Positions 3,193 to 63,340 of a DNA stretch of 64,000 nt are shown here, one piece after another. Position numbers and translations under genes: made by a program. The first letter of the stretch is position 1; every line of letters begins with the position of its first letter. The notes beneath the pieces were generated by a model. The model saw only the letters and a program-made list of their open reading frames with translations. It did not search any database and had not been told where the DNA came from. The DNA is from Chiloscyllium plagiosum (taxonomy: Eukaryota): positions 67,955,872 to 68,019,871 of the forward strand of contig NC_057718.1 in the NCBI RefSeq assembly GCF_004010195.1. The letters run 5' to 3'.

Positions 3193-3318
3193 TGCTCTCT
3201 CCACGCTTCAGGCTCTCTGCCTGTATTCCTGATGAAGGGCTTTTGCCCGAAACGTCGATTTTACTGCTCCTCGGATGCTGCCTGAACTGCTGTGCTCTTC
3301 CAGCACCACTAATCCAGA
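3193..3318 (+). mobile_element. Penelope-like short element with hammerhead core, 11-bp TSD, nested in an older fold-back element (3143-3430)
   Basis: Direct repeat atctgttgaga at 3182-3192 and 3319-3329; sequence shared with the copies at 5757-5885, 8473-8593, 19008-19172 and 22113-22285. Confidence 0.75.
3229..3256 (+). ncRNA. Minimal type I hammerhead ribozyme core (family 1)
   Basis: CTGATGA-A-GGGC-TTTT-GCCC-GAAAC-GTC; all core nucleotides present; palindromic stem III (ACGT); stem I weak. Confidence 0.7.
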
Positions 3319-3708
3319 ATCTGTTGAGAGAAAGCAGAGTTAACTTTTCAGGTCAGTGGATCTGCTGAGTTTCTCCAGCAATTTCTGTTTGTACTTCAGA
3401 TTTCACGCATCTGCAGTTTTGGTTTTGTTTCTCTTCAGAATAAAGAAATGTCTCATCTCAGTCCCATGTTATAGCTATCATAGCAAGGGAAAATAATTTT
3501 TCAGTACCTAATGTCAGACCCTTTAAACTTTTTTTTGTTTCAATCATCTCACACTTCACTCATCTAAACTAGAGCAAATATAGACTTGATTTACTTAGCC
3601 ATCTCATTTCTGGCAACCAATCAAATTAATCTTCAGCGTACCATCTCCAATACAAATATATCTTTTCTGTGTGGACACCAAACCTGCACAGAGTATATCA
3701 CCGTATTC

Positions 3709-3736
3709 CTGATGAATGGTTACCACCTGAAACATT
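3709..3736 (+). ncRNA. Degenerate hammerhead core
   Basis: gtattcCTGATGA-ATGGT-TACC-ACCT-GAAAC-ATT; same upstream context as 3223-3256, with CpG-type decay. Confidence 0.45.
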
Positions 3737-5610
3737 GGGGCAGATTTCCAGCTAGCCAGTCATAGCTGGGGGTATGCCTCAGAATCCTGAGAAATCACCA
3801 TCATAGCAGACTCTGAAAGGAAATTTCTGCTGGAAAATTCCTGTAGGCCTGGAATCATCTACATTTCTCCATTAAAATCATAGTTTTCAGATAGTCCCAA
3901 TGTAATACATTAGAATCTTTATTAAATGTATATATATATATAAAATATATATTCTGAGTAAGTATTAAATAGATCTCATGCTCATCTCACCCAACAAGCC
4001 TTTATGCTCACCAGACTCTGACCTGACATGCCATGGACTTGATATGGCATGCCCAAGAACTTGCAGCCACACTCTGGAACCCGGCACTTCGACAGCACCA
4101 CCAGAATCTCCCCAAATTTCACGCACAAGTGATCTCCCCTGCCCCTCTCCCAACCTCTTGTTGCCAGACCCAGAATCCCAAGACCTGATGCACACTGCAC
4201 ACAAGATCTCTGGTCAACCTACCCTAAATGCTACCTGGTACTCAAACCAGCTGGTAACCTATGTAGAAAGCATTGTCCACCTATTCCAGGAAGCACACTG
4301 CCCCCAACCAAGTTGGTACCCTGCTGACTTGGCACCCCACACCCACCCACCTGTCTGATGTTCTACTATCTGGCACACTTCGTCCTAGTTACCTGCCACC
4401 CTACCATGTCAGTATCCTAACATCACTCCTCATATACTTAGCCGTTTTAATCGCTGCTATCAAACTATGTTACAGCCTTTAAATTTCAGAATACAGCACT
4501 TGACTACTGTAAAGAGGGCACTGTTTGTCTTGCTCTGATAATTTTATGATTTGAAAGAACTGTCAGAATGAAAGGATGGCTCTGCATTTCTGAGAGATCC
4601 GAAAGTAATCTGCTCTTAGAAATGTGGAGCTCCCTTCTGTTTGCTTTCAGATTTGCTGAATATTTTCAGCATTTTCTACTTTTATCACGGTATCCAGGTA
4701 TTAGGCTCACCAAAGACCTGTACAGTTGTAGCAAGATTTTACTCTTGAATATCAGTCCTCTTGCATTTGACTTTGAATTGCTTGCTAACTTTCTGTTCTT
4801 GAGGTTACACTCAAATATCTCCTCACACCAAAATTTACAAGTTGCATGCCTTTTAAACTCTGTTGCTTTTCTATTTTGATCAACATTATACTGCACCTAC
4901 CACTTTATAGCCTATTAATATAACTTGTCTATATCTCTTTGCAACGTCTGACCACCTCTGAGCTTGCATTCCAATCCAACTACTTGTCATTTCAACAAAC
5001 TTTCTCTTTGTCTGAGCCCTTGATGTGAATTGTGAGGTCCCAGCACTAAATCTTGTACAACTCTTACTGGTAATATAGCAATTTGAAATGTCTATTTGTT
5101 CTAGATTACATTACATTACATTAGATTCTGTTTTGTTTCCTTTCTGCTAAGCAATATCTCTCAGTCCTAATATATTAACACCAATTCTGTGAGCCCTAAT
5201 CTTATGTCACTTCTTGTTTGGAACCTAATCACAATGTATTTTAGAAATTGAAATATGCAGATCGGGCAGCTTCATCCTTGTATCCAAAAACCAAAAAGAC
5301 CTTAAAAAAACAAAATCTGGAAAGAGACATATGGAGACAGAGTTTGGGTACTTTTTGGAAGGGAGAAAGCTTTGCTTGGCCTGAATGGGTTTAAAAGTGC
5401 ATTTTTTTTTCCAAAGGCTCAAACTTGACAAGTCTACATGTCTGTTCAAGACCATTCAGGCCCTTTGGGAGAAACTTCACTTTTCAGTCCATTCAGGCCA
5501 AGTGAAGTTTTTTTTCCAGAGGGCTTGAACAGACCTGAATGCACCTGTAAGTATATCCAAAAACTGAAAATATCACTACTTCTTGGATAAATGATTTCCG
5601 AACAGTACTG

Positions 5611-5735
5611 ATGGGCTGTTGTGATGCATTGGTAGTGTCCCCACCTCTGAGCCAGAAGGCCTATGTTCAAGTCCCACCTGCCCCAGTGGTGTGTAATAAC
5701 CCCTCTGGACAGGTTGATTAGAAAATATCTATCTT
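5611..5735 (+). mobile_element. Short tRNA-derived SINE
   Basis: A-box-like gtgatgcattggt and B-box-like gttcaagtccc followed by a short tail. Confidence 0.55.
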
Positions 5736-5756
5736 ACCTAATCGTCACCCTCTGGG

Positions 5757-5885
5757 GTCTAGATTAGAGTGGTGCTGGAAAAGCACAGCAGGTCAGGCAA
5801 CATCTGAGGAGCAGGAAAATCAACGTTTCGAGCAAAAGCCCTTCATCAGGAATAGAGGCAGGGTGCCTGCAGAGTGGAGAGATAA
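5757..5885 (-). mobile_element. Penelope-like short element with hammerhead core at 5822-5849
   Basis: Reverse complement reads CTGATGA-A-GGGC-TTTT-GCTC-GAAAC-GTT; body shared with 3193-3318. Confidence 0.75.
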
Positions 5886-6935
5886 TAGATTCTAATGCTG
5901 TCCCAGTGACAAATGTGAGGTAACTGACCTGCAGTTCCACTCCGTTCTTGAATAGTAATGTAACATTAACTTTCAATGCTGAGACTGACCAGTGTTTTCT
6001 GTCCCCTTCTATTCCTATTCTACTTGCTGCTCTTCTCACCCAAGATGCTTTCTCCCTTTTGTCTTTATGATCTTCTGTTATGAAGCTATCCCTCTCCTTT
6101 ACCATTCTGTCTATACTTTTGAAATGTTATGCACCCCAGGAATATTTGTTTTCTATCCATGACAAACTTGAAGCCGTATCTTTATAATGATTAGATCAAA
6201 AGTACATCTGTGTTTGTACCGTTAGTGGATCTGTCTGATTGTGGATCCTTCATGCATTGGGATAAATTAGTCTTTAATTTTGTATATTTTTGCATGTGCC
6301 ACCTTTGTTGTGCTAATATCCTTCACTTTATTCCGTTCCTGTTACACACTGCTCATCTTCCTGCATCACTATACTATTCTATTGTTTTAACATTTCCCTA
6401 ACACTCAGACCTTTCATTCTCTTGCTTGTCTGTCCAAATTATATAATTTTCTGAGGGACTGGTCCTAGCCAGTCTGAGTAGAGATCTCCAGACAGATCCA
6501 AACAGCTTCCCTTTCCTGGCTAAAGGTGGTTACTCATGTTTCAGCTTATCCTTTATGACCTATGGACTCCCCTCTATTTGAGGATAGAGGTGTTTTTTAA
6601 ACATCTCCTCCACCTACATTGTTGCTTAATTGTCCACCATCATTCTGAACTGGATGTGGCAGGCTCTGAATTGATCTGTTGGTCATGGGATCACTTTATT
6701 CTATTAGCTTACTCTTTAGTGTACATGTATTTTGAAACTTCAGGTTAGCAGCTCAGTTTTGGTCTCTGCTGCAGCTCCTGTCATGCTGTTCTAAATCCCT
6801 CATTGATTAGGGTTAATTCCTTGGCTTGAAGGTATGGCAGAGTAAGCAATCTACCAGACTGAGATTACAGATTGTGAGTTAACAAAATTCTGCTGCTTCA
6901 TGGGGCTTCTAGCTTTGTTATAAAATTCTCGCATA

Positions 6936-7114
6936 TAGAATCATAGAATTCCTACAATGTAGAAAGTCCATTCAGCCCATTGAGTCTGCACTGACCATCC
7001 AAAGAGCATTCCACACAGACCCAGCCTATCCCCGTAATTCTGTATTTACCACACGGGCGGAAGGGTGGAATCAAACCTTGGTCCCTGGTGCTGTGCTAAC
7101 CACTGTGCCACCAT
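6936..7114 (-). mobile_element. Internally deleted HE1-type SINE
   Basis: Tail catagaatcatagaat at one end and head gctaaccactgtgccaccatg at the other. Confidence 0.7.
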
Positions 7115-7149
7115 GTGCCTGCTGTATTTAGCAAAGAGGTAAGTACCAC

Positions 7150-7436
7150 GCATAACGGCGGAGGACATTCTCAGAATGAAGATGAAACATTGTTTCCACA
7201 AGGGTTGTTTGGTGCTCAGTGCTACCAATATCCTCATGGATACATGCATGAGCTTTGCTGTACAATAGTACTTACACGTATGCAGATAAAGAAACTGATT
7301 AAGCAAAGAGCGAGTGAGGGAATTAAGAAGAGTTTACTTACAATACTGACTTTAATTCAAAATTGCTTAATCGGATGTGAAGCACTTCGAGACATCCTGA
7401 GATCATGAAAGATTCTACATTTATGCAAGTTTCTTT
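7150..7436 (+). mobile_element. Old SINE fragment with L2-type tail (DeuSINE/SacSINE-like)
   Basis: 3' end gtgaagcacttcgagacatcctgagatcatgaaagattctacatttatgcaag; related inverted copy at 19240-19740. Confidence 0.5.
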
Positions 7437-8472
7437 AATACTTATAATCTTATCCACAATATTCTGATTTATAATAGTTTTTGCATGAGAATATTTTAAT
7501 TTTTTAAATGATTCTTTCATTTGGAAAACCCCTTTTCCAACTGTTAAGCTTAAAGCTCCATGATATGTATTCCAGAAATGTGAAAGGTTAAGCTTTGAAG
7601 TTGCTTTGTCAACAGAAACAAAATATGATTATAATAGTGCATGGATTACAAATAGTTTTAAAAATAACCTTCAAGACTAGGGTGGTTATACAAAAGACAT
7701 TTTCTTCACTGAAAAACTCATTATAATGTTGACCTTACCCACCCATTTCCTAAACAATGTGCATGTTCCAAAAATCTATCACTGTTTTCCTCATCAAATG
7801 TCAAGACATAAAATGGGTTGTTCTTAACTTGGTTATAATCTAATACTTTTTTAAGATGCGAGCTGCAGATTATTCTCTGTTGGGTTTGAAATCTGCTATA
7901 CCATAATGTTCAATACTGTAGATTTTTTTTCATAATATAGTGCATAATCTTCCCTCCAGAATCCAGCTAGTTAATGTTTGGAAATTGAGACATGAACATA
8001 ATACATAAGGAATTACGTGGTTTCCATAGCAGCCAGTAAGGTAAACAATCAAACTTCTTGCAGTCTCAGCGACTGCTCTGCTGCTAGCTTTTATGTATAG
8101 ATAAGATTAAACTGAGGATCAGTTCCCAAAAATTGCTGAAGGTGTAATGTTTAAGGTTTTTGAACTAGATGAATAGGAAATATTCTCGTGGTCCACCTTT
8201 TTTAAATGAGCACAGCAGTGGGTTGATCAGAGAAGCTTCAAAGGTTGAGACTCTCATCTCATTTCCTATTATTTGATAGCTGGTGGTGTCCTGTCAGAAC
8301 TGACAGAGTGGAGGGTTGAATGGATATGTTGCTTGTTCCCTTTTAGTACATTAGCAACTGAACAGAGGATGATTTAGAAAATAATATGGCACACCTCAAG
8401 CTGCCAAATCCAACTGAGTTGAGATACAGGATGAGCAGTGCACCTCTTTAAAATCATGACTGATAAAATAGT

Positions 8473-8593
8473 GTCTAGATTAGAGTGGTGCTGGAAAAGC
8501 ACGGCAGGTCAGGCAGCATCCAAGGAGCAGGAAAATCGACATTTCGGGCAAAAGACTTTCATCAGGGATAGAGGGAGGGTGCCTGCAGACTGG
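8473..8593 (-). mobile_element. Penelope-like short element, degenerate hammerhead core 8538-8565, 11-bp TSD
   Basis: TSD gataaaatagt at 8462-8472 and 8594-8604; reverse complement CTGATGA-AAGTC-TTTT-GCCC-GAAAT-GTC. Confidence 0.75.
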
Positions 8594-9237
8594 GATAAAA
8601 TAGTAGTCATGTTACTGGACTAATAATCCAGAATCGTGTTCCTCATTCATTTTCATTCAATTATTTAAATATATTTTGGATTAAAAGACTGCCACCAGTT
8701 GTGATAATCATCTTCCAGGAAGGAAGGGCAATCTGCTGCCCACACCAAAATTCTCAGAACTGCCCTCTGAAATAACAAGGTGAATCAATACCATTGTCTC
8801 AAGGGGGTTTAAGGATGGCCAATAAATCCTAATCTTGCCAATGTTTCTCTCAACCAGTGAATGACTTTGAAAAAATCTTCTGGCAAATTCCTTACTTTAT
8901 TAATAGAACATGCATGGGCCTGGTGTGTCTCAGTCACTTTCTGTGACAATCTCTCTTGCCTGCCTAATGGCTGTCAAAACTATTGCTTGTGGTACTTCAT
9001 AAAAGTTGTTTTTATCCTTTTTAGATACCTGGTCTCACATTTATATTATCCACGCCTGCACTGATAGTAAAATTCAGTGTGTTGCTCCTACTCTTTTTTT
9101 TTTAAACCTTAAACACCAGGAGCTTTTCTATTTCCCTCCTGCCTTTTTTTTTTAATTTAACATTGCTCAGGCTGTTAAAATTGAAGCTATTTTCTTTCTT
9201 GGTCTATTTGCTATTATAGCTCTTGGACATTTTCTTG

Positions 9238-12550: not shown

Positions 12551-12556
12551 TTTTTT

Positions 12557-12881
12557 TTAGATTACATTAGATTAGATTACATTACAATGTGGAAACAGGC
12601 CCTTCGGCCCAACAAGTCCACACCGACCCGCCGAAGCGTAACCCACCCATACCCCTACATTTACCCCTTATCTAACACTACGGGCAATTTAGCATGGCCA
12701 ATTCACCTAACCTGCACATCTTTGGACTGTGGGAGGAAACCGGAGCACCCGGAGGAAACCCACGCAAACACGGGGAGAACGTGCAAACTCCACACAGTCA
12801 GTCGCCTGAGGCGGGAATTGAACCCGGGTCTCTGGCGCTGTGAGGCAGCAGTGCTAACCACTGTGCCACCGTGCCGCCCAC
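12557..12881 (-). mobile_element. Full-length, low-divergence HE1/V-SINE-type SINE
   Basis: tRNA-like head, V-domain (tgtgtggagtttgcacgttctccccgtgt...cctccgggtgctccgg), CR1-like tail and (taatc/taatg)n end; CpGs retained. Confidence 0.92.
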
Positions 12882-15115
12882 AGTTCAGAGGCACTATTTT
12901 CCTGTTAGAGTGAAGGGTAAGGCTGGTAAGATTAAGGACCAATGGATGAATAAAGATATTGAGGTTCTAGTCAAGAATAAAAGAGAATTTTATTTTAGAA
13001 ATAGACAACTTGATTCAGTTGAATCTCTTAACCAATATCAAGTGTGTCGGGGCATTCTTAAGAACAAAACCAGGAAGGCAAAGAGGGGATATGAGATAGC
13101 TGTGGCAGATAAGATTAAGGGTAATCCAAAGAGATTCGACAAATACATTAGGAGCAAGAGGTTAATTAGAGAGAGGGTAGGGCCTCTTAATGATCTGTTG
13201 AACCACAGGAGATGGGAGAGATACCAAATTAATATTTTGTCAGTTTTTACTGTGGAGAAAGAAATTGAATCTAGAGAATACAGAGAAATAAACTTTGATA
13301 TCTTAAAAACAGTTCACATTACAGAAAAGGAAGTTTGGGAGGTTTAAGGGAACATAAAGGTGGATAAATCTCTGGGACTTGATCTAATGTAGCCCAGAAT
13401 GTTATGGGAAGTAAGGGAGGAAATTGCGAGACCCCTTGCAGAAATTTTAGCATTATTGATAACTATGGTTGAGGCGTCTGATGACTAGAGGGTGACTAAT
13501 ATTCTACCTTTGTTTTGGAAAGATGTAAGGAGAAACTGGAAAACTATAGACTTGAGTCTGACTTTGGTTGTGAGCAAATTGTTGGAGATAATTATAAAAG
13601 ATAGGATTTATTAACATATATTGATTAAGGATAGTCAGCATGGTTTTGTCTGAGGAAAACAGTTTCACAAATTTGATTGAGTTTTTAGAGCAAGTAACCC
13701 AAAATAGTGATGATGGCAGAGCAGTAGACATTGTTAATTTGGATTTAGTAAAGCCTTTGATAAGGTTCCGCATGGTAGACTAATTAGTAAAGTTAGTTCA
13801 CATGGAATTCAGTTAAGCTTGCCAATTGGAAACAAAATTGGCTTAACGTCCGGAGACAGAGGGTAGTGGTGGTGGTTGGGGGGGGGGGGGGGTAGAGAGT
13901 TGCTTTTCAGACTGAAGACCTGTCACCAGTGGTGTCCCAGACAGATCAGTTCTGGGTTCTCTTTTTGTTTATCATTTATATGAATGACTTGGATGGGAAT
14001 ATAAAAGGCATAGTTAGAAAGTTTGCAAATGACACCAAAATTGGCATAGCAGAAAGTGAAGTAGGTTCTCGAAGATTGCAAAGGGATCTTAATCAAATGG
14101 GCTGAAAAATGGCTGATTGAGTTCATTCTGGATAAATGTGAGGTATTGTGGGACAGGAGCAGGCAGGTGGCACTTGTTTAATTTGGGATTATGTTTGGCA
14201 TGGACTAGTTGGACCAAAGGGTCTGTTTCCATGCTGTATGACTTTAAGAGTAACAAAAAGATGGGGTACTGGGCTAATGGTCGGATACTTGGTAGTGTTG
14301 ATGAGCAGAGGTATCTTGGTGTCCATGTACACAGATCTCTGAAAGTTGCCACCCAGGTAAATAGTACGGTGAAGAAGGCATATGGCGTACTGGCTTTTAT
14401 TGGTAGAGGAATTGAGTTCCGGAGCCCTGAGGTCATGTTGCAGTTGTATAAGACTCTGGTTCGGCCGCGGTAGGTATAGGACAGATGTTAGGGGTAGATT
14501 CTTTACTCAGCGAGTTGTGAGTTCATGGAATGCCCTGCCAGTAGCAGTGGTGGACTCTCCCTCTTTATGGGCATTTAAACGGGCATTGGATAGGCATATG
14601 GAGGATAGTGGGCTAGTGTAGGTTAGGTGGGCTTGGATCGGCGCAACATCGAGGGCCAAAGGGCCTGTATTGCGCTGTATTTTTCTATGTATTCTATGTA
14701 AATAGGAAGCTAGATAAAAGTGGAGGGGTAGCACTCTTAATCAAGAATGGCATTTGTGCACTAGGTCCTAATTACTTTAGTTCAGGAATTTGGGATAAAG
14801 AAATGGTTTGGGTGGAGATGAAAAATAGTAAAGGAAAATAATTCATGAACGAGAGATGTCTAAAGGCCCCAAATAGTAACACTATTGGAGGACGAAGTAA
14901 ACAAAAGAAATAATTTACGTAAGAGACAGCAATAACCATGGGTGATTTTGATTTATATATAAATTTAAAAGACTAGATTGACAAAGGTAACTTGGATGAA
15001 GAGTTCATACAATGCTTTTGAGAGTGTTTTTTTGAGCAGCATGTTCTGGAACTAATCCAAAAACAGGCTACACTCGACTTGGTGTTGTGTAAGGTAACAG
15101 GGTTAATGAATTAAC
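12882..15115 (+). mobile_element. Cluster of decayed CR1-type LINE fragments (linker/RT, tails, endonuclease piece)
   Basis: ORFs PVRVKGKAG...KAKRGYEIAVADKIKGNPKRF and YLGVHVHRSLKVATQV; tails at about 14240 and 14695. Confidence 0.85.
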
Positions 15116-18138: not shown

Positions 18139-19007
18139 TATCTCTCCCATTACCTCTGCAAAAAAAAACGTTTGTATGAACGCAAGTAATGTTTGCTAAA
18201 TTCCTGCTGGTGCTTTCAGCATTTCATATCTGTTCTGATGCTCAGTCACTCTACACTGAGTTATGGATTTTAGTAACTTCATGGTAATAAACTCGAGACT
18301 GACAAGCCTAGAATTTCCAAAAGACAGACCGTCTTGATTTGCTGCTCTAGGAAAAGAAGATACAATATGGTGACAGGTAATGGTAGCAAATGTTACCTAT
18401 AAAAAGCCAATTATTTTATGTTTCATTGCATGTTTTTTACAGTTATAATGTGTTGTACATGGAGCTTCCCAGAATCCAATTGTTTTAGCAGCTTCTGGCA
18501 ACAAGTACCTTTGAGTGCACCCTTGAGAATGAACTACTTTTTAAACAGAAATTGAAGACCTAGTAATATGTTAGTTTACCAGATATACACCAAACAACAA
18601 CATTTTAGCATTTCTATTTTATAGTAATTTTCATCATTATTTAAAGAAAACAAGTATGAACTAAGATGGTGCACTCACCATCTAGTTTACTCATTAAAAA
18701 ATTGTTCCTTTTAATGCTATCCAGTAAAAAGAGCTAAAATCAATGACATCCCCTCACCAACCCACTGCCAGTCTTGACTTTTTACATCTTGAACCAGCAA
18801 CTTTCCTGTTGCACTGCTCATTGTGAGTTGCAGGATATAGCCTAAATTTAGTGTATAAAGTAAGAGGAAAAGCAAAATTATGCATAATTTGTGATTTAGA
18901 GAAGGGTGAAATATGGTCCGTGACAAAGATGTACATACTTTTGGATTGACCGAATAGGAGTTAATTACAGAACGTAGTATTTTTGTTGTAGGCATTATTT
19001 AAAATGT

Positions 19008-19172
19008 CGAGAGTGTGGTGCTGGAAAAGCACAGCAGGTCAGGAAGTATACGAGGAGGAGGAGAATCGATGTTTCGGGCATAAGCCCTTCATCAGAAATT
19101 CCTGATCTGTGCTTTTCCAGCACCACACTCTTGATTCTGATCTCCAGCATCTGCAGTCCTCCCTTTCTTCAT
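19008..19172. mobile_element. Fold-back Penelope-like element, 13-bp TSD, hammerhead core on minus strand 19068-19095
   Basis: TSD ttatttaaaatgt at 18995-19007 and 19173-19185; inverted arms 19010-19034 and 19107-19131; reverse complement CTGATGA-A-GGGC-TTAT-GCCC-GAAAC-ATC. Confidence 0.8.
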
Positions 19173-19239
19173 TTATTTAAAATGTGGTCTACGAAAAACT
19201 TTTAAAATATAGAGATCATAGATGGTGCTTACTTAACAT

Positions 19240-22022: not shown

Positions 22023-22112
22023 AGTTGATTTAGAGTTCGGGACTCACGTTTTCCCATGAAAATGAAAGAGAAGGATGGCAAGATTCGGGAAGCTTGGATA
22101 ATAAGAGAAATT

Positions 22113-22285
22113 AGGAGAAAGTAAGGACTGCAGATGTTGGAGATCAGAGTCTGGAGTGTGGTGCTGAAAAAGCACAGCAGGTCAGGCAACATCCAAAGCA
22201 GGAGAATCAACGTTTTGGGTATAAGCCCTTCAGGAAAGTGCTCATTCCTTATGAAGGGCTGTTCTTGACTCTCAACTTCTCTTCT
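22113..22285 (-). mobile_element. Penelope-like element with broken hammerhead cores, inserted in CR1
   Basis: Same body as 19008-19172; core damaged (cctgaagggcttatacccaaaacgtt on the minus strand); partial inverted second arm at 22244-22260. Confidence 0.7.
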
Positions 22286-25200
22286 CAGAGTTGAGAGAGT
22301 GAGTGCTTTGTCAAAAGAAAAAGGCATACAGAGGGTTGAGGAAGTGGAAGACAGACAGACTGCTCGAAAAATACAACGATAGCAGAAAAGAACTCGAGGA
22401 ATTAGGGCTAAAAGAGACAATGGCAAATAGGATTAAGGGTAATCCCATGGCATTTTATACATATATAAGGACAACAGGGGAGCTAGGGAAAGGGTAGGTC
22501 CACTCAAGGACAAAAGAAGGAATTTTGTGCGTGGAGCCAGAGGAAATGTGTGAGGTCCTTAATGAATACTTTGCATCAGTATTCACAAAGGAGAAGAACA
22601 TGATGAATAGAGTGTCTTGGGAGGGGTATGTTGGTGTTCTGGAGCATGGCAATGTGAAATAGGAAGAGGTGTTAGGTATTTCAAAACGCATTAAGGTAGA
22701 CAAGTCACCAGAATCAGATGGGATCTATCCTAGAATGCTGAGGGAGTCTGGTGATGACATTTCTGTGGCCTCGTATGAAATCTCTGATTCCTCTTTAGTC
22801 ACAGAAGTCCCAGAGGACTGGAGAATAGCCAACAATGTTCATTTGTTTAAGGGCAACAGGGAAATTACAGGCCATTGATCCGTACATCAGTGGTAGGGAA
22901 ATTATTGAAGATACTTTGGGACAGGATTTACTCACATTTGGCCTTATTAGCTATAGGCAGTATGGCATTGTGCAGGAAAGATCATGTCTCACAAACTTAA
23001 TTAAATTTTTTGACAAAGTGGCAAAGATGATTGAGGGTAGCGCAGTAGATGTGTTATTGCTATGTATTTTCACAAGACCTTTGACAAGGTTCCCCCATGG
23101 CAGGCAGATATAAAATGTGAAGTCACATGGGATACGCGGTGAGCTGATTAAATGAATACAGAACTGGATTAGTCTTTAAAAGACAGAGTAGCAGTGGAAG
23201 GGTATTCTTCTGACTGGAGATCTGTGACCATTGGTGTTCTGCAGTGATTCGTGCTGGGACCCCTGTTGTTTGTAATATATGTAAATGCTTTGGAGGAGAA
23301 AATAGGTGGTCTGATTAGTAAGTTTGCAGATGTCACAATGATTGGGGGAGCTGTGGATAGTGAGGAGGATTGTTGGTGGTTACAGCAGGATATAAGATGG
23401 TGACTTGGGTGGAATAATGGCAGGTGGTGTTTAATTGGACAAATGCAAGGTGATGTACTTTGGAAAGTCTAATGTAGGAGAGAAGTATACAGTAAATGGC
23501 AGAACCCTTAGTTCCATCAACATAAAGAGAGATCTATGTGTACAGATCCACAGTTCCCTGAAATTGGCAAAACAAGTGGATAAAATGGCCAAGAAGGCAT
23601 ACTTGCCTTCATTGGTCAGGCATAAAGTATAAAAATTGGCAAATCATGTTGCAGCTGTATTGAACATTAATTATGCCATATTTGTGCACAGTTCTGTGAC
23701 ACACAGTTCTTATGTCATGTTTACATGAAGGATGTGGATGCTTTGCAGAGGGTGCAGAAATTTTTTAACATGTTTTCTGGTTTGGATGGCATTGGCTATG
23801 TGCAACGTTTAGACAAACTTGATTTGCTTTCACTTGAACAGCAAAGGATACGTGGTGATGTGATAGAACAAAATTATGAGGCATGGCTAGAATGGAAAAT
23901 CAGAGGCTTTTTCCCAGGATAGAAATGTCAGTTACTAGCAGATATAGGTTTAAGGTAAATGGAAATACGTTTAAAAGGAGATATGAGAGGCAAGTTTTTT
24001 TTATACAACAGGAGGTGGTGAAAGTAGATACATTTAAGAGGTATCTTTGATATATGAATAGGCAGGGAATAGTGGATACAGACCACGTAGAGGCAAAAGA
24101 TTTTTAGTTGAGAAAGGCATGGTGTAGGTGCAGCATTGGTGGAGCAAAGGGCCTGTTCCGTGTGCTATATAATTCTGTGTTATTGTATCTTTGTATTTCT
24201 GTGTTTTACTACTGCTAAATCTCAATAATACTAATAACAGATTTGCCATGAATTACAAAACTTACGTAATCATTCACTCAGTAATTAGAACCAGTGCAAC
24301 AAAACACTCTTCTGAAATCTTGGTTTCATACAAGACAGATTTAACTTGAAGCCAGCATTCAATCTCCAATAGAAACTGGCAGTAGATTGTGTTGGTTCAG
24401 TGTGCAATTTGCTAATTTGAAACAATGCGTTGGGGCATTCTACAAGATGTAGTTGCTGAGCTGGAACTTGAAGTTTCTGCTTAAATATGTTGTATGCGTG
24501 TTTGGGGAGCTGTAGTATTTTGAGGGAAAAAGATTCTGTTCAGACAGAAACATCTCACACTCAGAAATGCTGTACTTTTATAAGTGACCTATGAATTTCT
24601 ATTGGCAGAAATCCAATCAGACCTACAAATATGAAGCAAATGCCAGGAAAAAGATAAACCTATGGAGGTGGGCAGTACTAATAATAGATTCTTGATTACC
24701 CACAATGCAAATTGGTAGAGCCATGTGCGTCGTGCAAATTATGTTTTTAAAAGCTAACAAAGGCCAATAATCATAGAAAACAAGTTGAAACTTTTTGTTT
24801 GTTTTAGTTGTATTCATTTAATTCAATGTAATACAGTTCATAGGTGGAGAACATAAAGGAAGAGAGAACTTATCTGAATGAGTTGCATCAGATTTCTGTA
24901 GAAATTCACGAAGAATATGTACTGTCTCCTGTCATTCTAACATTCCTGCAGGGGTTAGTAAAATAATAGCTGCTGATATGACTCAGAAAATAGCAGGAAT
25001 CTGCTTTATAGACACTTCACAAGCTGCACTCATCATTGTAACACTCCCTATGATACTCAATAGATCCTATTCCATCTCGAGTCAGAAATATTACTACACT
25101 GCTTAATATACTAGTTACAAAGTCATTTATAGGACAAAGAATCTTGAAATGCTTTGCATTAAGCATTAGAATGTTTGGTACTGTTACTTGGCAAGTGTAA

Positions 25201-26083: not shown

Positions 26084-26324
26084 GATTTATCTGGATCCAT
26101 CGACGATTTACCAACAGGGACAGAAGGTACACTAAGTTCTGGAGTGAGTGCTTCAGGATCCTCAAGTGGCCAAGGAGAACCAAGTAATCCTGCACAATCT
26201 CCCTTCTCCCCTCATGCTTCTCCTCACCTGTCTGGTATCCGGGGCCCCTCCCCCTCTCCAGTTGGTTCTCCTGTTGGAAGCAATCAGTCCAGGTCTGGAC
26301 CCCTGTCCCCAGCAGGTGTACCAG
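26084..26324 (+). CDS. arid1b: ARID1B internal coding exon (241 nt, phase 0 to 1), [15 protein letters not shown]...[10 protein letters not shown](G)
   Basis: Acceptor ttttgttttgctAG with CTAAT branch-like motif at about 26058; donor CAG|GTAATT. Translation [76 protein letters not shown] matches the conserved ARID1 N-terminal block. [14 protein letters not shown] and [10 protein letters not shown] are ARID1B-type, as recalled from the human proteins. Confidence 0.93.
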
Positions 26325-49367: not shown

Positions 49368-49681
49368 GGAGCAGCACAGTGGCTCAGTGATTAGCACTGT
49401 TGCCTCATAGCACCAGGGACCCGGGTTTGATTCCTGTCACGGGCGACTGTCTGTGTGGAGTTTGCACATTCTCCCTGTGTCTGCATGGACTTACTCCAGC
49501 TGCTCCAGTTTCCTCCCATATTCCAAAGATGTGCAGGTCAGGTGAATTGGTCATGCTAAATTGCCCATTGTGTTAGGTGCATTAGCCAGAGGGAAATGAA
49601 TCTGGGTGGGTTACTCTTCGGAGGGTTGGTGTGGACTTGCTGGGCCAAAGGACCTGTTTTCACACTGTAGAGAATCTAATC
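49368..49681 (+). mobile_element. HE1/V-SINE-type SINE
   Basis: Head gcagcacagtggctcagtgattagc, V-domain, tail acactgtagagaatctaatc. Confidence 0.88.
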
Positions 49682-49889
49682 AAAAGTCAAATGACACCGG
49701 GTTATAGTCCAACAGGTTTGTTTGAAATCACAAGCTTTCTAAGCACTACCCCTTCATCAGGTGAAGTGCCTAACAAAGGGGCAGCGCTCTAAATGCTTGT
49801 GATTTCAAACAAACGTGTTGGACGACAACCTGGTGTCGTGTGACTTTTGACTTTGTCCTCCGCAGTCTAACACTGGCACCTCCCACATC
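49682..49889. mobile_element. Fold-back Penelope-like element (family 2); hammerhead core on minus strand 49732-49760
   Basis: Arms 49681-49735 and 49795-49850 are inverted; reverse complement tcacCTGATGA-AGGGGT-AGT-GCTTA-GAAAG-CTT-gtga. Confidence 0.75.
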
Positions 49890-49994
49890 ATGACATTGAT
49901 ATTGACATTGATCTAACTCACAGTTCATTGAAATTGAAAATTACCATTATTATTCTTAGTAGAGTTAATCATTGAAGAAATTGTTTCACCATCT

Positions 49995-52530
49995 TATTTG
50001 ACTCTGTGTCTCGATGCGAAGAGCATTTGTAGTAAGGTGGATGAATTAACTGCATGAACAGTTATTAATGGATATGATGTAATTGGGATCGCAGAGACCT
50101 GGCTCCAGGGTGACCACGGATGGGAGCTCAACGTCCAAGGTTATTAAATTTTCAGGAAAGACAGACAAAAAGGAAAGGGAGGTGCAGGTAGGATTGCTGG
50201 TTAAGGAGGAGATTAAGACAATAGTAAGTGAGGTCATTAGCCTGGACAATGTGGAATCAATATGGGTGGGGCTGCGGAGCACCAAAGGGAAAAAGACATT
50301 GGGAGTTTTATACAGACCACCAAACAGGAGTTGTGATGTTGGGGACTGTATCACCCTGGAAATTAGAGGTGCATGCAGTAAGTGTACAGCAGTTAGTATA
50401 GGTGACTTCAATCTACATGTTGATTGGACTAACCAAACTGGTAGCAATGCAATGGAGGAGGATTTCTTGGAATGTATGAGGGTTGGTTTCCTCAACCAAA
50501 ATGCCGAAGAACCAACGAGAGAGCAAGCCAACCTAGTATTGGCTTGTGTGTGAGAGCCTTTGAGGAACAGTGACCACATTATGGTAGAATTCTTCATTAA
50601 GATGGAGAGTGACACAATTAAATCTGAAACTAGGGCCCTGAACTTAAATCTAACTTTGGTATAAGGCATAGATTGGCTTGGATAAATTGGGCAAGGGTAG
50701 TTAAGGGGTTGATGGTGGATAGGCAATGGCAGACATTTAAAAAAACACATGGATGAATTTCAGCAATTGTACATCTCTGACTGGCATAAGAGTAAAACAG
50801 GGATGGTGACTCAACCATGGGTAACAAGGGAAATCAGGAATAGTATTAAAACCAAAGGGAATGCATATAAATTGGCTAGAGAAAGCAGTAAACCTGAGGA
50901 CAGGGAGAAATTTAAAATTCAGCAGAGGACAGTAAAATGTTTAATTTGGAAAGAGAAAACAGAATATGAAAGTAAGCTTGTGGAAAACATAAAAACTGAC
51001 TGCAAAAGCTTCTACAGATATTGAGGTGCCGGTGTTGAACTGGGGTGGACAAAGTTTTTTAAAAATCACACAACACCAGGTTATAGTCCAAAGGTTTATT
51101 TGGTGGGACAGGTGATTGAAGCTTTTGATGAAAAGCAGCACTTTGAAAGCTAGTGCCTCCAAATATACCTGTTGGTGTTGTGTGATTTGTAACTTTGTCT
51201 ACAGGTATATGAAGAGAAGAAGACTGGTGAAGACAAATGTAGGTCCCTTGCAGTTAGGATCAGGTGAATTCATAATGAATAAAGAAAAGATAGCAGCCCA
51301 GCTAAACAAACACTTTGGACTTCTCTCCACTCATAATCTTCAGGAAATGCCAGAGGACAGAGGGTAAAGCACAAAGGAGTAACTGAAGGAAATCCTTATT
51401 AGTCAGTAAATGGTATTGGGAATATTGATAGGATTAAAATCGATAAATTCCAAGGGCCTAATGCTCTGCATCCCAGAGTACTTAAGGAAGTGGCCCTAAA
51501 AATAGCAGATGCAATGTTGATCATTTTCCAGCATTTTGTAGACTCTGGAAGAGTTCCAATGGACTGGAGGGTGGCTAATATAACCCCACTTTTTTTTAAA
51601 AAAGGGGAGAGAGAAAAAATGAGGAATTATAGGCCGGTTAACCTGACATTGACGGTGGGGAAAATGCTGAACTCAATCATTAAGGATGTAATAACTGAGC
51701 ATTTGGAAAGCAGCAACAGAATTGGTCCTAGTCAGCTTGGGATTCACTAAAGGGAAATCATGTTTGACAAATCCTCTGGAAACTTTTTGAGCATGTGACC
51801 AGTAGAGGAAACAATGGTGAATCAATAGTTATGTATCTGGACTTTCGAAAGGTTTTTGATAAAGTTCCACACAAGAGATTAGTAAGGAAAATTAAAGCTC
51901 ATGGTATCAGAGGTAATGTATTGACATGGATAAAGAACTGGTTTGCAGACAGGAAACAGCATGGAATAAACAGGTCCTTTTCAGAGTGGCAGGCAGTGAT
52001 GAGTGGGGTGCTAAAGGGTTCCGTGCTGGGACCTCAGCTGTTCATAATATACATTAACGATTTGGATAAAGGAATTAAATACCGTATCTCCAAATTTGCA
52101 GATGACACTCAGCTGGGTGGCAGTATGTGCTGTGAGGAGAATTTTAAGAGGCTGCAGGGTGACTTGGACAGACTGGCTAATTGACCAAATACTTGGCGAA
52201 TGCAATTAAATGTGGATAAACAACAAGGGGTCACAGTCTAAGAGCAAGGGGCAAGCCATTCAGGACTGAGATGAGGAAGAACTTCTTCACTGAGAGTTGT
52301 GAACCTGTGGAATTCTTTCCCGCAGGAAGCTATTGGGCCTGTCCTTTAGATGTATTCAAGAGAGAGCTGGACATGGCCTTTTGCGGCTAAAGGAATCAAG
52401 GGGTGTGGGGAGAAGGCAGGAATAGGATATTGAGATTGAATGATGAGCCATGATCATATTGAATGGTGTACAGCCTTGAAGCCCCAAATGACCTACTCCT
52501 GCACCTATTTTCTATGATTCTATGTTTCTA
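49995..52530 (+). mobile_element. Decayed CR1-type LINE (EN-RT-tail, internal deletions)
   Basis: ORFs GVLYRPPN...IGDFNL, DWRVANITPLF, YLDFRKVFDKVPH...KFADDT; (ctatgtt)n tail. Confidence 0.9.
51022..51197. mobile_element. Family 2 Penelope-like fold-back element nested in CR1
   Basis: TSD tctacagatat (51011-51021) and tctacaggtat (51198-51208); decayed core TTGATGA-AAAGC-AGC-ACTTT-GAAAG-CTA on +. Confidence 0.72.
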
Positions 52531-52878
52531 TGCTACCCCTTTATCAAAGCACGATTTGAGTATTTATAAAGCCATCTCTTGACAGTTGGGAAAGTAGTGT
52601 CTTGTTATTTCAAGTTGGTTGCTGAAGGACTATCTACATTGACAAGCCTTAACTCCAACATTGGCAATTTCAACATGGCCACAAAATATAAGTCAATGGT
52701 TTGGAAATACATAGGTCACTATTCTGTATTACATGAATGCAGCGTCTCGTCACTGTCAAAGTGTGAAAATTGTCACTTAATTTTCAGGAGGTTTAGTTTG
52801 GGTTGGTTTCTTAGGCCCACATAATTTGGTTGTCCTGTCTCCGAATAGAGGTTCAGTATGGCTGCCATTCCCCATCAG

Positions 52879-53086
52879 AGTTAAAAATCACACAACACCA
52901 GATTATACTCCAACAGTTTAATTGGAAGCACTAGCTTTCGGAGCACTGCTCCTTTATCAGGAGGTTGTGTTGAAGGAGCGGCGCTCCAAAAGCTAGTGTG
53001 CTTCCAATTAAACCTGTTGGACTATAACCTGGTGTTGTGCGATTTTTAACTTTGTGCACCCCAGTCCAACACCGGCAACTCCAAAT
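52879..53086. mobile_element. Family 2 Penelope-like fold-back element, perfect 13-bp TSD, two mutated hammerhead cores
   Basis: TSD cattccccatcag at 52866-52878 and 53087-53099; long inverted arms; minus core 52932-52960 CTGATAA-A-GGAGC-AGT-GCTCC-GAAAG-CTA. Confidence 0.82.
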
Positions 53087-53239
53087 CATTCCCCATCAGG
53101 AAATTGAGTCTCTCAAGTTGAAGGAGGCATTTTACAACATAACTATTTTGGAAAGTCCCAAAATTGTAATGTTTTTAGAATTCATGTTCTGCTGGTTTCT
53201 AAAATGTTTTCGACCTTAAGTCTTATCATAATGTTAGCA

Positions 53240-55080
53240 TGCCTTATCTTTCAAATTGATAGGATACTCAACTTCCTCAGGAAGAGATTATAGAATTGTT
53301 CAAAGACATAATTTTGTTGCGAGCTACACAATGTTTTCCTCTGCTTATTACTTCCTCAGTCCAACTCTGTCTTCATACCTTTGTAATTGCATTTAATTAG
53401 GATGCTTGTTTGAGTTCCATGTTTCTCACTCTCAAACTGAATTTGAAATCCCTTCATGTTGTGATCATTTTTGCCTTGAGAGTCCTTTGCTATGAACATG
53501 TTAATTAACCTTGCTCCATTACAAATTAGCAGATATATAATAGCCCATTTTCTGATTGGTTCTATGAATTTTAGTAAGAAACTGCCCTGAAATATTCTAT
53601 ATGCTCATTCTCAAGGTTACCATTATGAATTTGATTTGTTTAATCTACAGGAAACTAAAAAATCCAAGAACTGTTGTCCATCTTTCTTATAAGCCCCCAT
53701 TATTTCTTGATTTATGCTTTGTCCAAGAATGTACTGACAGAGTGCCACCATTAACTTTATTCTCTTGCTATTTTTCTTGTCTTCAGCCAAACTGATTTAT
53801 ATCTTGACGTAGGCCAAAATCATTCTTCAGAATTATATTTATATTATTCTTTACGAACAAAGCTACCCATTTCCTCCATCTTTTTGCTTTTCCTTCTGAA
53901 ATTTCAAATACTCCTGAATATTCAGTTCCAAGCTTTGGTCAGCATCAAACCACGTCTCTGTCAGAATATCGTAGAATCCCTACAGTGTGGAAACACGCCA
54001 TTTGGCCCAGCAAGTCCACACCGACCCTCCGAAGAGTATCCTACCCAGACCCATTCCCCTCCCCTATTACTCTACATTTCCCCTGACTAATGCACCTAGT
54101 CTACACATCCCTGAACATAATAGGCAATTTACCATGGCCAATTCACCTAAGCTGCACATTCTTTGGAGTGTGGGAGGAAACTGGAGCAGCCCAAGGCTAG
54201 AATCGAACCATAGTCCCTGGCGCTGAGAGGCAGCAGTACTACCCACTGAGCCACCATGCTACCCATTATGCCTGTTTGTTTCTATTTGTGCCATCAATTA
54301 ATCTATTTTGTTTCAAATGCTGCTCAGACAGAGAGCATTTAAATGTGGTTTGACTATTTTTCCCAACTAGTACCCTATTTACAGGTATCGCTGTTATTAT
54401 GTTTGCATGCTCTGTCCTTTCCTGTTACCTTCTGGTTATCATTACCCATATTAGTACCTCCACTACAATTTTTAATGCACTTTACTTCCCATACCCACAA
54501 TTTCATTCAAAGTTCTTTGTATAGCCCTCGTTATTTCATAAGCATAACTTTAATCCCAATATTGTTCAGGTGAAGGTGGTCTCATTGCAACCATCTTTTT
54601 CTTTCCACAGTACTGATGTCAGTGTCCCATGAGTTGAAATTCATTTCTTTCACCCAGTCTTTAAGCCAAACATTCAACTTTCAGATTGTATTTACCCTAT
54701 GCCACTTTGCTGATGGTTCAAGTAATAACCTCAACTTTTAATACCTTTCTTTGCTTTTTACTGAAGTCCCTGGGTGCTCAAGCTCCTCAAACAAAGTTAC
54801 ATCCTGAGTCCTACCTTTGTCATTGATGCCCACATTTACCACAAGATCTGGATCTTTTAATTTCCATTCCAAGGTTCTTGCTACCCCTGAGGAGCTGTCC
54901 TCAACCATGGCACTAAGCAGGCAACACAATACTGCTTGATAGACATATACTTTTAGCTGCAGAGAGCAGTATCATTTTTTGTTCCCAGTAGTGACTACAG
55001 TCCTTCTGTTTCCTATGCTAGAATGATCTCTTGAATCATAATGCTGTGGTAAGATTGCTCATCCACCCTTTTGTTCCTAA
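53240..55080 (-). mobile_element. Old CR1-type 5' region (ORF1 esterase-like and EN), split by a deleted HE1 SINE at 53963-54264
   Basis: Minus ORF DPDLVVNVGINDKGR (GxND block); sequence parallels 34440-36050. Confidence 0.65.
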
Positions 55081-55207
55081 TCTTGTCTACATGGGATGCA
55101 AGGAGATAAGTGTAGGGGCTGAGGTACCTCCAACATTGATTTCCTGTCAGCATCATTTGAACTCATAGAAAGCGGGCTATACCACCAGTGCTTTATCTGG
55201 AGGCTCA

Positions 55208-55241
55208 CTGATGATGTTACCTAGAATGGTGACGAAACGTC
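55208..55241 (+). ncRNA. Minimal hammerhead core (family 3) within Penelope-like repeat of about 55165-55322
   Basis: CTGATGA-T-GTTACC-TAGAAT-GGTGAC-GAAAC-GTC; 6-bp stem II; flanks homologous to 63155-63260 on the opposite strand. Confidence 0.72.
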
Positions 55242-55329
55242 AGAAAACAAACCTTCCACCTCAGCAAGCAATCTATATCCAGAACCTCAACCTGAGCTGC
55301 AAATCTTCTCAAAATGCACTAAGGGATAG

Positions 55330-60764: not shown

Positions 60765-61827
60765 TGAAGGAAAATCAGGATGGTAAGAAAACTTTGCACA
60801 TAATGACATTTAAAGTAACCTGGAGGTCGTTTGTCTTAAGCGGACTTGCTACATGCATTCTTTGTAAGAAGGTGGCGAATTCATTACATGGGCTGGATGT
60901 TTTCAGAGCCCTGCCATTTGAAAAGGCAGTGAGGAACACAGTACTATTGATTATGGCAGCTCAGTAGCCATTTAACGTGCCAATACAAGTTATTTGGCTG
61001 TAGATGAATAAATAGGGTGTTTCGTTTATTTGTGTGCACGTGTGTGTTATGGTTGGAGGAGAAACCCATGAAAGGAAAATAGACCCTCAACAGAGGTTCT
61101 TTTCTTCCCTTCCTCTACGGATTACCTTCCAAACTTTCTACATCACTCGAACATCCTTCAATCAGCCTTCTAGTTGGCCAATGACTGAGAACCTCAGCTG
61201 GGGTAAGATTGGGCAGGCTGGTCTCACCTTCAATTACCCCTGTCACATGAAGAATTGACAAGAAGGTTATCCTGAGAGTTTACAGTCCTCCACCGATAGC
61301 CATTGAGAAAATTCTTCCCATGCAGTATTGACCTCAATATCTTGACTGCGTAACTGTAAATTTGTCTTAAAGTTGAATTTTTACATATGGTCTTCAGAGT
61401 TATGGTCTTTTTTTTAACACATTGGCTAGGCCAGTGTTATTTAACCACATTGCTGTGGGTCTGGAATTACATATAGATGAGACTGAGTAAGGACGGTAGT
61501 TTCTTTCCCTAATGGACATTGGTGAACCAGATGAGCTTTTCCCAATGATCAACAGCTGTTTCACAGTCATCATTAGATTCTTAATTCCAGGATTTTATTG
61601 AATTCAAATTCTACCATCTGCCATAGCGGGATTCAGACCTGACTCTCTAGATTAACATTCGAGCTATAATACCAGTAGGCCATTGTTTTTCCAGTGAAGA
61701 TAATTAACTCAGGGTAGGTATTGTTGGGGATTTTTTTCAGTTCTAACTCCGCTTAAGACAAACGACCTTCAGGTTACTTTAAATGTCATTACGTGCAAAG
61801 TTTTCTTACCGTCCTGATTTTCCTTCA
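60765..61827. repeat. 80-bp inverted repeat pair (60765-60844 and 61748-61827), 77/80 identical, 903-bp spacer
   Basis: Direct base-by-base comparison of the two arms. Confidence 0.92.
61410..61690 (-). mobile_element. Family B SINE, decayed
   Basis: Matches 34826-35160. Confidence 0.7.
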
Positions 61828-61834
61828 CACTAAA

Positions 61835-62152
61835 GTGGGCGGCACGGTGGCACAGTGGTTAGCACTGCTGCCTCGCAGCGCCAGAGACCTGGGTTCAATT
61901 CCCGACTCAGGCGACTGACTGTGTGGAGTTTGCACGTTCTCCCTGTGTCTGCGTGGGTTTCCTCCGGGTGCTCCGGTTTCCTCCCACAGTCCAAAGATGT
62001 GCAGGGTCAGGTGAATTGGCCATGCTAAATTGCCCGTAGTGTTAGGAAATGGGTAAATGTAGGGGTATGGGTGGGTTTCGCTTCGGCGGGTTGGTGTGGA
62101 CTTGTTGGGCCGAAGGGCCTGTTTCCACACTGTAATCTAATCTAATCTAATC
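61835..62152 (+). mobile_element. Full-length, low-divergence HE1/V-SINE-type SINE
   Basis: gtgggcggcacggtggcacagtggttagc head, ggttcaattccc B box, V-domain, (taatc)n tail. Confidence 0.92.
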
Positions 62153-63154
62153 ATAGATAATGGAAGGCCAATAGAAGGAAATGATTCAACATTATGCAAA
62201 CCAACAAATGTGTTTATTTCTGTATTGTACATGGCTAATCAAGCAAATAAAATCATAACTTGCTCCTTTAATCATTTCGTCTCTTCATCCAAGTTGTTTA
62301 ATGTATAAAAGAAGTAATTCTTATTACAAGGATTTATAATTACTTTTTGATGCTGCATCTGGTTTCACTTTCTTCCTAGCTTATTTAGGGTAGTTAATAG
62401 AATAAGTTAATAACTCTCCATTGCTCGAGGATGCGCTGGAATAGTCTGGGGCTGCAAATTTTCTATGACCACTGTGTGCTAAACACTATTATCCAATTGG
62501 AAGATACCTTTTACTGTGGAAACTTAATCTTGTGGATGAGCAATGTCAATACTTAGCTTCCTCGGGATATGTTATGTTGAGTGTTGAACATGATTCACCT
62601 GCCACTTATAACTTTCAGGTTCCAGTTGATTTTATCTTTATGAAAAAGTATTTTTCCAAGGTGTACACACTGTGTGGTCATGATAAAATTGTAATGTACA
62701 GTATGATTTAACTATATTTTTCTATAGAGTATATCAAAATAGCTAAAATTTAAACTAACAAGCATATATTTACACAGATATATTGATAAGGGAAGAAGTG
62801 TTACAGTAGGTCAGACATCTTATAAATAACTGCAGGAATGTAAAAGTAACTCATGATGTTAGCAGTATCAGTATTTTCGTATAATCTTTCTTTGAGTGCA
62901 ATGGCAGTGCAGGTTGACCACGAATTAATTTGAATAAACCAGTTTGTGTATTATTTGATTGGCTTCACCGTTGTAACTTAGTTAAACTTGCCTACTATGG
63001 TAATGCAGATAATTAATAGAAAGGAGGGATGATAAGAGCTCTCTTCTGTGATACCTGGCTATGGCAGACCTCTACATTAATTTTAAAAAATGATATTGTG
63101 AACTATTGTTTGGTTTCAAGTGCTATATTTTGCTGCTATCATTAGCTTTCTCTT

Positions 63155-63340
63155 AGCGAGTTTTGAGAAGGTTGAGGTTTTGGATGTAGGTTTGCTCACT
63201 GAGCTGAAAGGTTTATTTCCAGACATTTCGTTACCTTACTAGGTAACATCTTCAGTGGACCTCATACGAATAGAAAGCAGGAATTTTCAGCATTGCTTCG
63301 CATGAGGTAATGAAATGTCTGGAAATGAACCTTTAAGCTC
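63155..63340. mobile_element. Family 3 Penelope-like fold-back element with perfect 11-bp TSD
   Basis: TSD agctttctctt at 63144-63154 and 63341-63351; arms 63199-63236 and 63305-63342 are inverted. Confidence 0.8.
63222..63255 (-). ncRNA. Minimal type I hammerhead ribozyme core (family 3), best-paired copy
   Basis: Reverse complement tcca-CTGAAGA-T-GTTACCT-AGTA-AGGTAAC-GAAAT-GTC-tgga: 7-bp stem II, 4-bp stem I, GUC triplet. Confidence 0.75.

Follow-up and report, generated by a model that had tools for sequence, protein, structure and literature searches.

Short hammerhead-bearing inserts in the ARID1B region of the shark Chiloscyllium plagiosum as probable truncated ends of Penelope-like elements

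The ARID1B introns of Chiloscyllium plagiosum carry short inserts with minimal hammerhead ribozyme motifs, which were analysed in 64,000 nt of contig NC_057718.1 (this whole stretch is called the window here, and all positions count from its start). These inserts of 30-210 bases are best explained as 5′-truncated 3′ ends, consisting of a pseudo-long terminal repeat (pLTR) and an optional tail, of three or more autonomous families of Penelope-like elements (PLEs), and they are probably inert by-products; we put the probability of this explanation at roughly 0.8. That the inserts behave like PLE ends is well supported, and that they are PLEs is likely; membership rests on architecture because no family is linked to an open reading frame (ORF) of a PLE. 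The fit of the motif, the head-to-head arms, the one-sided tail, the target site duplications (TSDs), and the lack of a PLE ORF in the window together support a heavily truncated PLE derivative. A preliminary description of this DNA had proposed non-autonomous or heavily truncated PLE derivatives. The second half of this proposal is supported by motif, layout, and TSDs, whereas a non-autonomous mini-element is not favoured because the ends vary by copy and family-1 sequence runs on upstream elsewhere.

The motifs were searched with a strict descriptor comprising the core, a helix II of at least 4 bp, paired positions 15.2-16.2, an NUH triplet, and a helix I of at least 2 bp. Without core mismatch, this descriptor gave two matches in the window versus a mean of 0.05 in 20 order-2 Markov sequences; with up to one core mismatch, it gave four versus a mean of 0.25 (maximum 2). 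Thus, the descriptor check that had been proposed for the motifs gave matches above the Markov expectation. All ten sites listed in the preliminary description, which had given minus-strand sites by their low coordinate, are present on one or the other strand as hammerhead-like motifs or their remains. The first core C lies at 3229 (+), 5849 (-), 8565 (-), and 19095 (-) in family 1, with a broken copy near 22232 (-), at 49760 (-), 51125 (+), and 52960 (-) in family 2, and at 55208 (+) and 63255 (-) in family 3. The inserts to which these positions belong, together with related remnants, are the following.

3193-3318, plus strand: family 1 single-arm stub; core intact at 3229-3256, predicted cut at 3256/3257; 11 bp TSD at 3182-3192 / 3319-3329.
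5758-5888, minus strand: single-arm stub of family 1 with an undamaged core (first C 5849) and GUU as its triplet; helix II includes one wobble pair, and a TSD was not found.
8473-8593, minus strand: single-arm stub of family 1 with a disrupted helix II, flanked by an 11 bp TSD at 8462-8472 / 8594-8604.
19008-19172, both strands: head-to-head fold-back of family 1; the core (first C 19095, with a mutation at position 16.2) is on the minus arm, and the plus arm is without most of the ribozyme but bears a tail of ~36 nt; 13 bp TSD at 18995-19007 / 19173-19185.
22112-22290, both strands: family 1 rearranged fold-back inside a fragment of a CR1-type long interspersed nuclear element (LINE); the core is broken, the minus arm bears the tail, and a TSD was not found.
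41237-41265, minus strand: family 1 tail-only insertion of 29 nt without ribozyme, inside a LINE fragment; 14 bp TSD at 41223-41236 / 41266-41279.
5-41, plus strand: family 1 tail at the window edge, the rest of the copy lying outside the window; its letters equal the loose end behind 3323 among the contigs described below.
49680-49892, both strands: family 2 head-to-head fold-back; both ribozyme arms damaged, tail of ~42 nt on the plus arm; no TSD found.
51022-51197, both strands: family 2 fold-back inside a CR1-type LINE; damaged core at 51125, second arm with the ribozyme deleted and a tail of ~38 nt; TSD matching at 10 of 11 positions at 51011-51021 / 51198-51208.
52879-53086, both strands: family 2 fold-back; in the minus arm (first C 52960) an A replaces G8, and the plus arm begins within the core, with G12 changed and a tail of ~36 nt; 13 bp TSD at 52866-52878 / 53087-53099.
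55165-55324, plus strand: single-arm stub of family 3 (first C 55208) with an intact core and an intact helix II of 6 bp, but with the first pair of helix I broken; no convincing TSD.
63155-63340, both strands: family 3 fold-back; minus arm (first C 63255) with a near-intact ribozyme (4 bp helix I, 7 bp helix II, wobble at 15.2) and a tail of ~50 nt, plus arm having lost the 5′ half of the ribozyme by deletion; TSD of 11 bp at 63144-63154 / 63341-63351.
3146-3432, both strands: older decayed fold-back of a related fourth family, hosting the insertion at 3193-3318, with a tail-like extension on the plus arm.
26655-26785, both strands: older decayed fold-back, a remnant with ends like those of the fourth family.

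The earlier list of ten sites is therefore real throughout; it had overlooked the two tail-only pieces of family 1 and several older related remnants, and the true density of hammerhead-type remnants exceeds ten sites. Stubs and older remnants together make up ~1,970 bp, or ~3% of the window, with boundaries set by the authors. Further decayed remnants are seen at 3700-3740, 3815-3862, and 4640-4690, with a hammerhead-like core at 3709 (profile E 0.011) and ends similar to those of the fourth family. Four other pairs of CTGANGA and GAAA boxes, at 13478, 43519, 59300, and 12344, were rejected as they fail the full descriptor.

The three families share the core and differ in the helices. Helix II has 4 bp in family 1, 5 bp in family 2, and 6-7 bp in family 3, and the best arm of each family has an extra nucleotide after A9 and a G10.1-C11.1 pair. 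The loopless stem III had been described as palindromic, which is confirmed by ACGT in families 1 and 3 and AGCT in family 2. Helix I, which measures about 3-5 bp in PLE-type minimal hammerheads, consists of 2 bp, a mismatch, and 1 bp in family 1, has 4 bp at 63255 and 49760, and differs by one compensatory pair between the two family-3 copies. Stem II is indeed family-specific and yet paired, but the term 'covarying' used earlier goes too far, as the data comprise only three independent between-family states; a MAFFT alignment did not bring the longer helix II of family 3 into register. The integrity of the motifs had also been overstated. The families are real, but most copies are damaged: when both arms of the fold-backs are counted, CUGANGA and GAAA boxes with NUH in type I order are intact in 3 of 16 arms, with one mismatch in several others, and core, helix II, and palindrome are all kept in only three (3229, 5849, and 55208, the last without the first helix I pair). 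In family 2, core and helix II are not intact together in any of the six arms. The family-2 motif given as GGAGC/GCTCC with GAAAG-CTA is a composite across copies, GGAGC/GCTCC itself being seen only in the insert 52879-53086. The Rfam check suggested for the motifs had a negative outcome, as no hammerhead family was among nine matches at E ≤ 10 and none reached the gathering score in the window. Rfam hammerhead models expect a closed helix III. A mir-3179 match at 49723-49807 was rejected; it is the family-2 hairpin and lies far below the gathering score.

The anatomy of the inserts agrees with the published layout of PLE insertions. Exact direct repeats of at least 11 bp (11-13 bp) flank five of the ten inserts (those with low coordinates 3229, 8538, 19068, 52932, and 63222), compared with 3 of 600 random intervals (0.5%), and the insert at 51125 has the imperfect repeat of 10 in 11 positions. 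The earlier statement that fold-backs carry 11-13 bp TSDs is borne out, for example, by 19008-19172 (13 bp), 52879-53086 (13 bp), and 63155-63340 (11 bp). Six of the ten inserts are head-to-head fold-backs, in which the ribozyme ends face each other. A tail of 36-50 nt is present on one arm only in each of the five clear fold-backs, and in four of the six one arm is internally deleted across the ribozyme. In the deleted arms, a short run of bases reaches or enters the core before most of the ribozyme is skipped (19099-19110, 51100-51118, 63270-63310, 22241-22270). Single-arm copies begin 28, 33-36, 39, and ~43 nt upstream of the core, the first three starts belonging to three copies of one subfamily; the ~43 nt of upstream family sequence at 55165-55324 are a weak match, which 0.8% of 2,000 random places score equally. 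All ten inserts end within ~45 nt upstream of the core, and none starts or ends at the predicted cut site. No tandem arrangement, such as the partial tandems that give PLEs direct pLTRs, was found among the ten sites, all of which are dispersed singles or inverted pairs. The tail-only insert with its 14 bp TSD and the variable 5′ ends argue for truncation rather than a fixed mini-element. This 29 nt insert (41223-41279 with TSD) is about the smallest possible product of the insertion machinery. In the nested copy 3193-3318, the first five letters of the target site equal the start of the family-1 tail, a possible microhomology at the 3′ junction.

Relatives of family 1 were sought with the copy 3176-3335 at 80% likeness in two sequencing runs from two other organisms, which yielded 54,660 and 62,441 contigs (~117,000 in total), these being contigs and not copy numbers. 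In 208 and 203 contigs, respectively, the sequence extends upstream of 3196 and is partly shared (agreement 0.52-0.56). As about 200 contigs per run continue in this way, longer family-1 members exist. Depth climbs steeply at 3224-3235, and loose ends accumulate at 3225-3227; this pile is confounded because its consensus ends in the upstream letters of another subfamily, so that divergence alone would give a break. Joints to the opposite strand all differ from one another among the 11 listed of 18, which fits fold-backs formed anew with each insertion. Changes at CpG in six ribozyme positions amount to 6.7-16.9% of depth versus 3.5-19.2% at one CpG outside, and those at the catalytic G12 to 9.6% and 12.6%. 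No compensatory helix II change occurs among the 40 variant rows listed of 51. For family 1, decay of the genomic stubs without selection is supported. Family-1 sequence was also found in 2,152 of 12.96 million RNA records of one polyA single-cell run, on both strands; this run has no pile of read ends at the cut site, which is a weak test given the unsuitable library type. A second RNA run had no family-1 reads and the family-2 stretch was in no RNA run on record, neither of which is evidence on expression.

From these features and by analogy with other PLEs, the following course of insertion can be proposed. The GIY-YIG endonuclease of the element would make staggered cuts 11-14 bases apart, and target duplications of this size are found at the inserts. 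Reverse transcriptase would then start inside the pLTR RNA at one of two sites ~40 bases apart, giving the ends with and without tail that are observed. Copying would halt within ~45 bases upstream of the ribozyme core; the short and variable 5′ ends are seen in the copies and may reflect an early stop. Priming at the opposite cut end would often yield another short copy as the head-to-head arm, which would be rebuilt at each insertion. The ribozyme was uncut in the copied template, as both sides of the predicted cut are present in the copies. In the parent element it would work only as a dimer or with the help of protein, as suggested by the literature discussed below, and the genomic stubs would subsequently decay without selection, for which the family-1 data speak. 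Structure predictions also favour the truncated-end explanation: for each of the five best arms, a dimer folded as a hammerhead is 7.6-26 kcal/mol less stable than the dimer minimum, and fold-back transcripts form one long hairpin of -49 to -126 kcal/mol, which would be predicted to bury the ribozyme core.

Several observations weigh against this explanation. No ORF with reverse transcriptase and GIY-YIG domains is linked to any family: none is among the window ORFs scanned, as would be expected of truncated copies, and there is no link at the protein level. The family patterns had no match in metagenome, viral, and prokaryotic contigs, collections that are not expected to contain shark DNA. 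For four of the ten inserts (low coordinates 5822, 22210, 49732, and 55208) no target duplication was found. The inner ends of the fold-backs cluster within ~14 nt of the core, which is tighter than random truncation suggests, and there is no long copy among the ten inserts. The family-3 tail (~50 nt, with a deletion) exceeds the published 30-40 nt. Decay was assessed for family 1 only, by a depth-weighted test with a single CpG as control and in runs of other organisms. Finally, folding energies leave out tertiary contacts. A repeat of 11 in 12 positions, 500 bp upstream of 55208, was rejected as a TSD, being a chance match in a wide search.

Comparison with known systems, which refers to the available parts of the cited sources, places the inserts closest to metazoan PLEs. 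All three shark families fit the consensus NNN CUGANGAH G..C GAAAN-palindrome-NUH of the minimal hammerheads in these elements, and both the ACGU and the AGCU palindrome occur in the published alignment, which, in the part available, is without cartilaginous fish (PMC4209133). The three families are additions to an already described class. With 4-5 bp, families 1 and 2 have a shorter helix II than most published minimal hammerheads (PMC4209133). Many families per genome, mostly represented by single motifs of truncated PLEs, and low, dimer-only cleavage have been reported (PMC4209133). The more than 50,000 family-1 contigs per run, compared with 4,000-9,000 motifs in coelacanth and frog (PMC4209133), suggest far more copies, although contigs are not copy numbers. 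The endonuclease-bearing PLEs Penelope/Poseidon and Neptune resemble the shark inserts in strong 5′ truncation, an adjacent head-to-head inverted copy, an optional tail of 30-40 bp at one end, TSDs, solo pLTRs, and insertion into retroelements (PMC3846280, PMC8557442). In contrast to these elements, the shark inserts are only 30-210 bp long and have no ORF, and their TSDs have 11-14 bp versus 8-10 bp in rotifer PLEs (PMC3846280, PMC8557442). In the Poseidon element of Anolis carolinensis (PAc), two internal start sites bound the tail and uncut RNA is the template; ribozyme mutants still insert, cleavage occurs only with protein, and no RNA-seq reads ending at the cut site are reported in the part of the source available (PMC11167929). 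In shark family 3 (55214-55324, 63249-63155), an ATG lies where helix II starts and the end of the family sequence follows ~110 nt later, similar to the PAc start sites at 111-118 nt (PMC11167929), but the family-3 frame is without protein relative: none was found for the frame read from the core ATG with X at stops. Families 1 and 2 have no open frame of this type. The open frame that spans family 1 matched a single host gene model and none of 1.84 billion representatives. A CEP57-like gene model of the brownbanded bamboo shark opens (residues 1-38) with translated family-1 sequence plus tail, which is either exonisation or a gene-model artefact and indicates that the family is present in that genus. 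PLEs have been noted in whale shark introns and reported as expanded there (10.1101/443036, PMC8455134). No literature description of shark PLE hammerhead families was found in this comparison, which was made outside Dfam and Repbase; the one publication that brings all three subjects together refers to sharks only through the name of the ribozyme.

The position of the 5′ ends can be read in another way. The stubs may be short run-off cDNAs, for which reverse transcriptase would start at the tail site of the upstream pLTR and run to the RNA 5′ end, a short distance upstream of the uncut ribozyme; the resulting product of 100-170 nt would be the main output of the autonomous element. We regard this as a possible though less probable refinement, compatible with the truncated-end explanation. 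It would account for the end of all ten inserts within ~45 nt of the core, for the inner fold-back ends within ~14 nt, and for the family-1 depth rise at 3224-3235 with its loose ends at 3225-3227, and internal initiation on uncut RNA has been demonstrated for the anole element (PMC11167929). However, the pile at 3225 is confounded by subfamily divergence, three copies of one subfamily start at different distances (28, 33-36, and 39 nt), and the transcription start is a predicted position. An extension of this idea for carpet sharks, in which run-off cDNA is the main product and helix I, mirrored in the cDNA, folds back and primes the inverted arm, would give the hammerhead a role in shaping insertions by its fold and not by cutting. 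It is rather improbable. The 11 listed of 18 opposite-strand joints of family 1 link 3220-3234 to 3237-3280, and nine of the 11 lie at or past the cut site, where the 3′ strand of helix I begins, which is a hint for such priming; against it, none of the six fold-backs in the window has an arm starting at the cut site.

Another class of explanations assigns the inserts a life of their own. Animal retrozymes without long terminal repeats (non-LTR retrozymes) consist of tandem repeats with a hammerhead in consecutive units, with a chondrichthyan mean of 363 bp (10.64898/2026.07.22.740005), and share with the shark inserts the lack of an ORF, a type I hammerhead, and a relation to PLE pLTRs. The shark inserts differ in being dispersed singles or head-to-head pairs of 30-210 bp without the tandem arrangement that defines this group (10.64898/2026.07.22.740005). 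It seems unlikely that they are dedicated non-autonomous elements, similar to short interspersed nuclear elements (SINEs) or to retrozymes, which would be transcribed from copies of their own, cleaved by hammerheads acting as dimers, and moved in trans by proteins of PLEs. Their abundance without a nearby ORF (the 54,660 and 62,441 contigs and ~3% of the window), the 2,152 RNA reads, the report of non-LTR retrozymes in one chondrichthyan genome (10.64898/2026.07.22.740005), and the ability of pLTRs to mobilise other sequence in trans (PMC3846280) would agree with such elements. But the ten sites hold no tandem units, both ends are variable, no insert is bounded by the predicted cut, damage affects most cores, CpG decay inside the ribozyme resembles that outside, fold-back joints differ, and reads from both strands fit passive transcription within host RNAs. 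That the likeness to hammerheads is due to chance, or a relic in another repeat class such as LINE tails or miniature inverted-repeat transposable elements (MITEs), is very unlikely. The missing Rfam match and the marginal helix I of family 1 would be expected in this case, and hairpin shape plus TSDs superficially fit MITEs, but descriptor matches lie far above the Markov expectation, three unrelated helix II sequences occupy the same core position, and the arms are unequal in length and tail, unlike the terminal inverted repeats of MITEs. Least credible of all is a function for the host gene, by which the intact copies at 3229 and 55208 would self-cleave in ARID1B pre-mRNA and regulate ARID1B. 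Both have an intact core and the same orientation as the gene, but minimal motifs are uncleaved as monomers in vitro (PMC4209133), the active fold is far above the minimum, and the two sense copies are 52 kb apart and belong to different families, conservation of the locus being hypothetical. Nothing points to an importance of the copies for ARID1B.

Minimal hammerheads that are missed by Rfam can cover ~3% of a shark intron region, and tens of thousands of short TSD-bearing copies form a natural record of the start points, stop points, and inversions of PLE reverse transcription. Cleavage by the PLE hammerhead is not needed for insertion in vitro (PMC11167929), and these copies could serve to test marking of the RNA end versus priming of the inversion. 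Near the tail border, families 1 and 2 (3282-3304, 53045-53065) have a branch-point-like motif, a pyrimidine run, and an AG, which resembles a splice acceptor, and the family-2 tail ends at or near an ATG (49890-49892). These could be the acceptor of a 5′ intron and the ORF start of the PLE, and also a route to exonisation.

The assignment of the setting to ARID1B introns, which the preliminary description had made, is confirmed by three exons on the plus strand with AG/GT borders.

26084-26324, plus strand: ARID1B exon with protein match.
40288-40377, plus strand: ARID1B exon with protein match.
63423-63602, plus strand: ARID1B exon, 97% identical to a whale shark ARID1B-like protein, as would suit a carpet shark.

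The five family-1 sites upstream of 26084 are presumably intronic as well, because the first exon seen, at 26084, is an internal exon in the mammalian relative used. The fold-back 63155-63340 lies only ~80 nt upstream of the exon acceptor at 63422. The absence of a GIY-YIG/reverse transcriptase ORF of a PLE from the window, also claimed earlier, was corroborated by a Pfam scan of 117 ORFs, mostly the longer ones among the 184 with 70 aa or more, those containing N being left out. None of the 117 had a GIY-YIG match. The longer ORFs are fragments of LINE reverse transcriptase and AP endonuclease, and the matches comprise these and three weak, unrelated families. Much of the remaining introns is filled by many CR1-type LINE fragments and by an abundant SINE-like family (1594-1743, 12672-12882, 37878-38216, 49371-49679, 53981-54265, 61835-62151), the young copies of which are 96-98% alike. 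Two hammerhead stubs sit inside LINE copies, and a run of 227 N at 1367-1593 lies within a LINE/SINE stretch.

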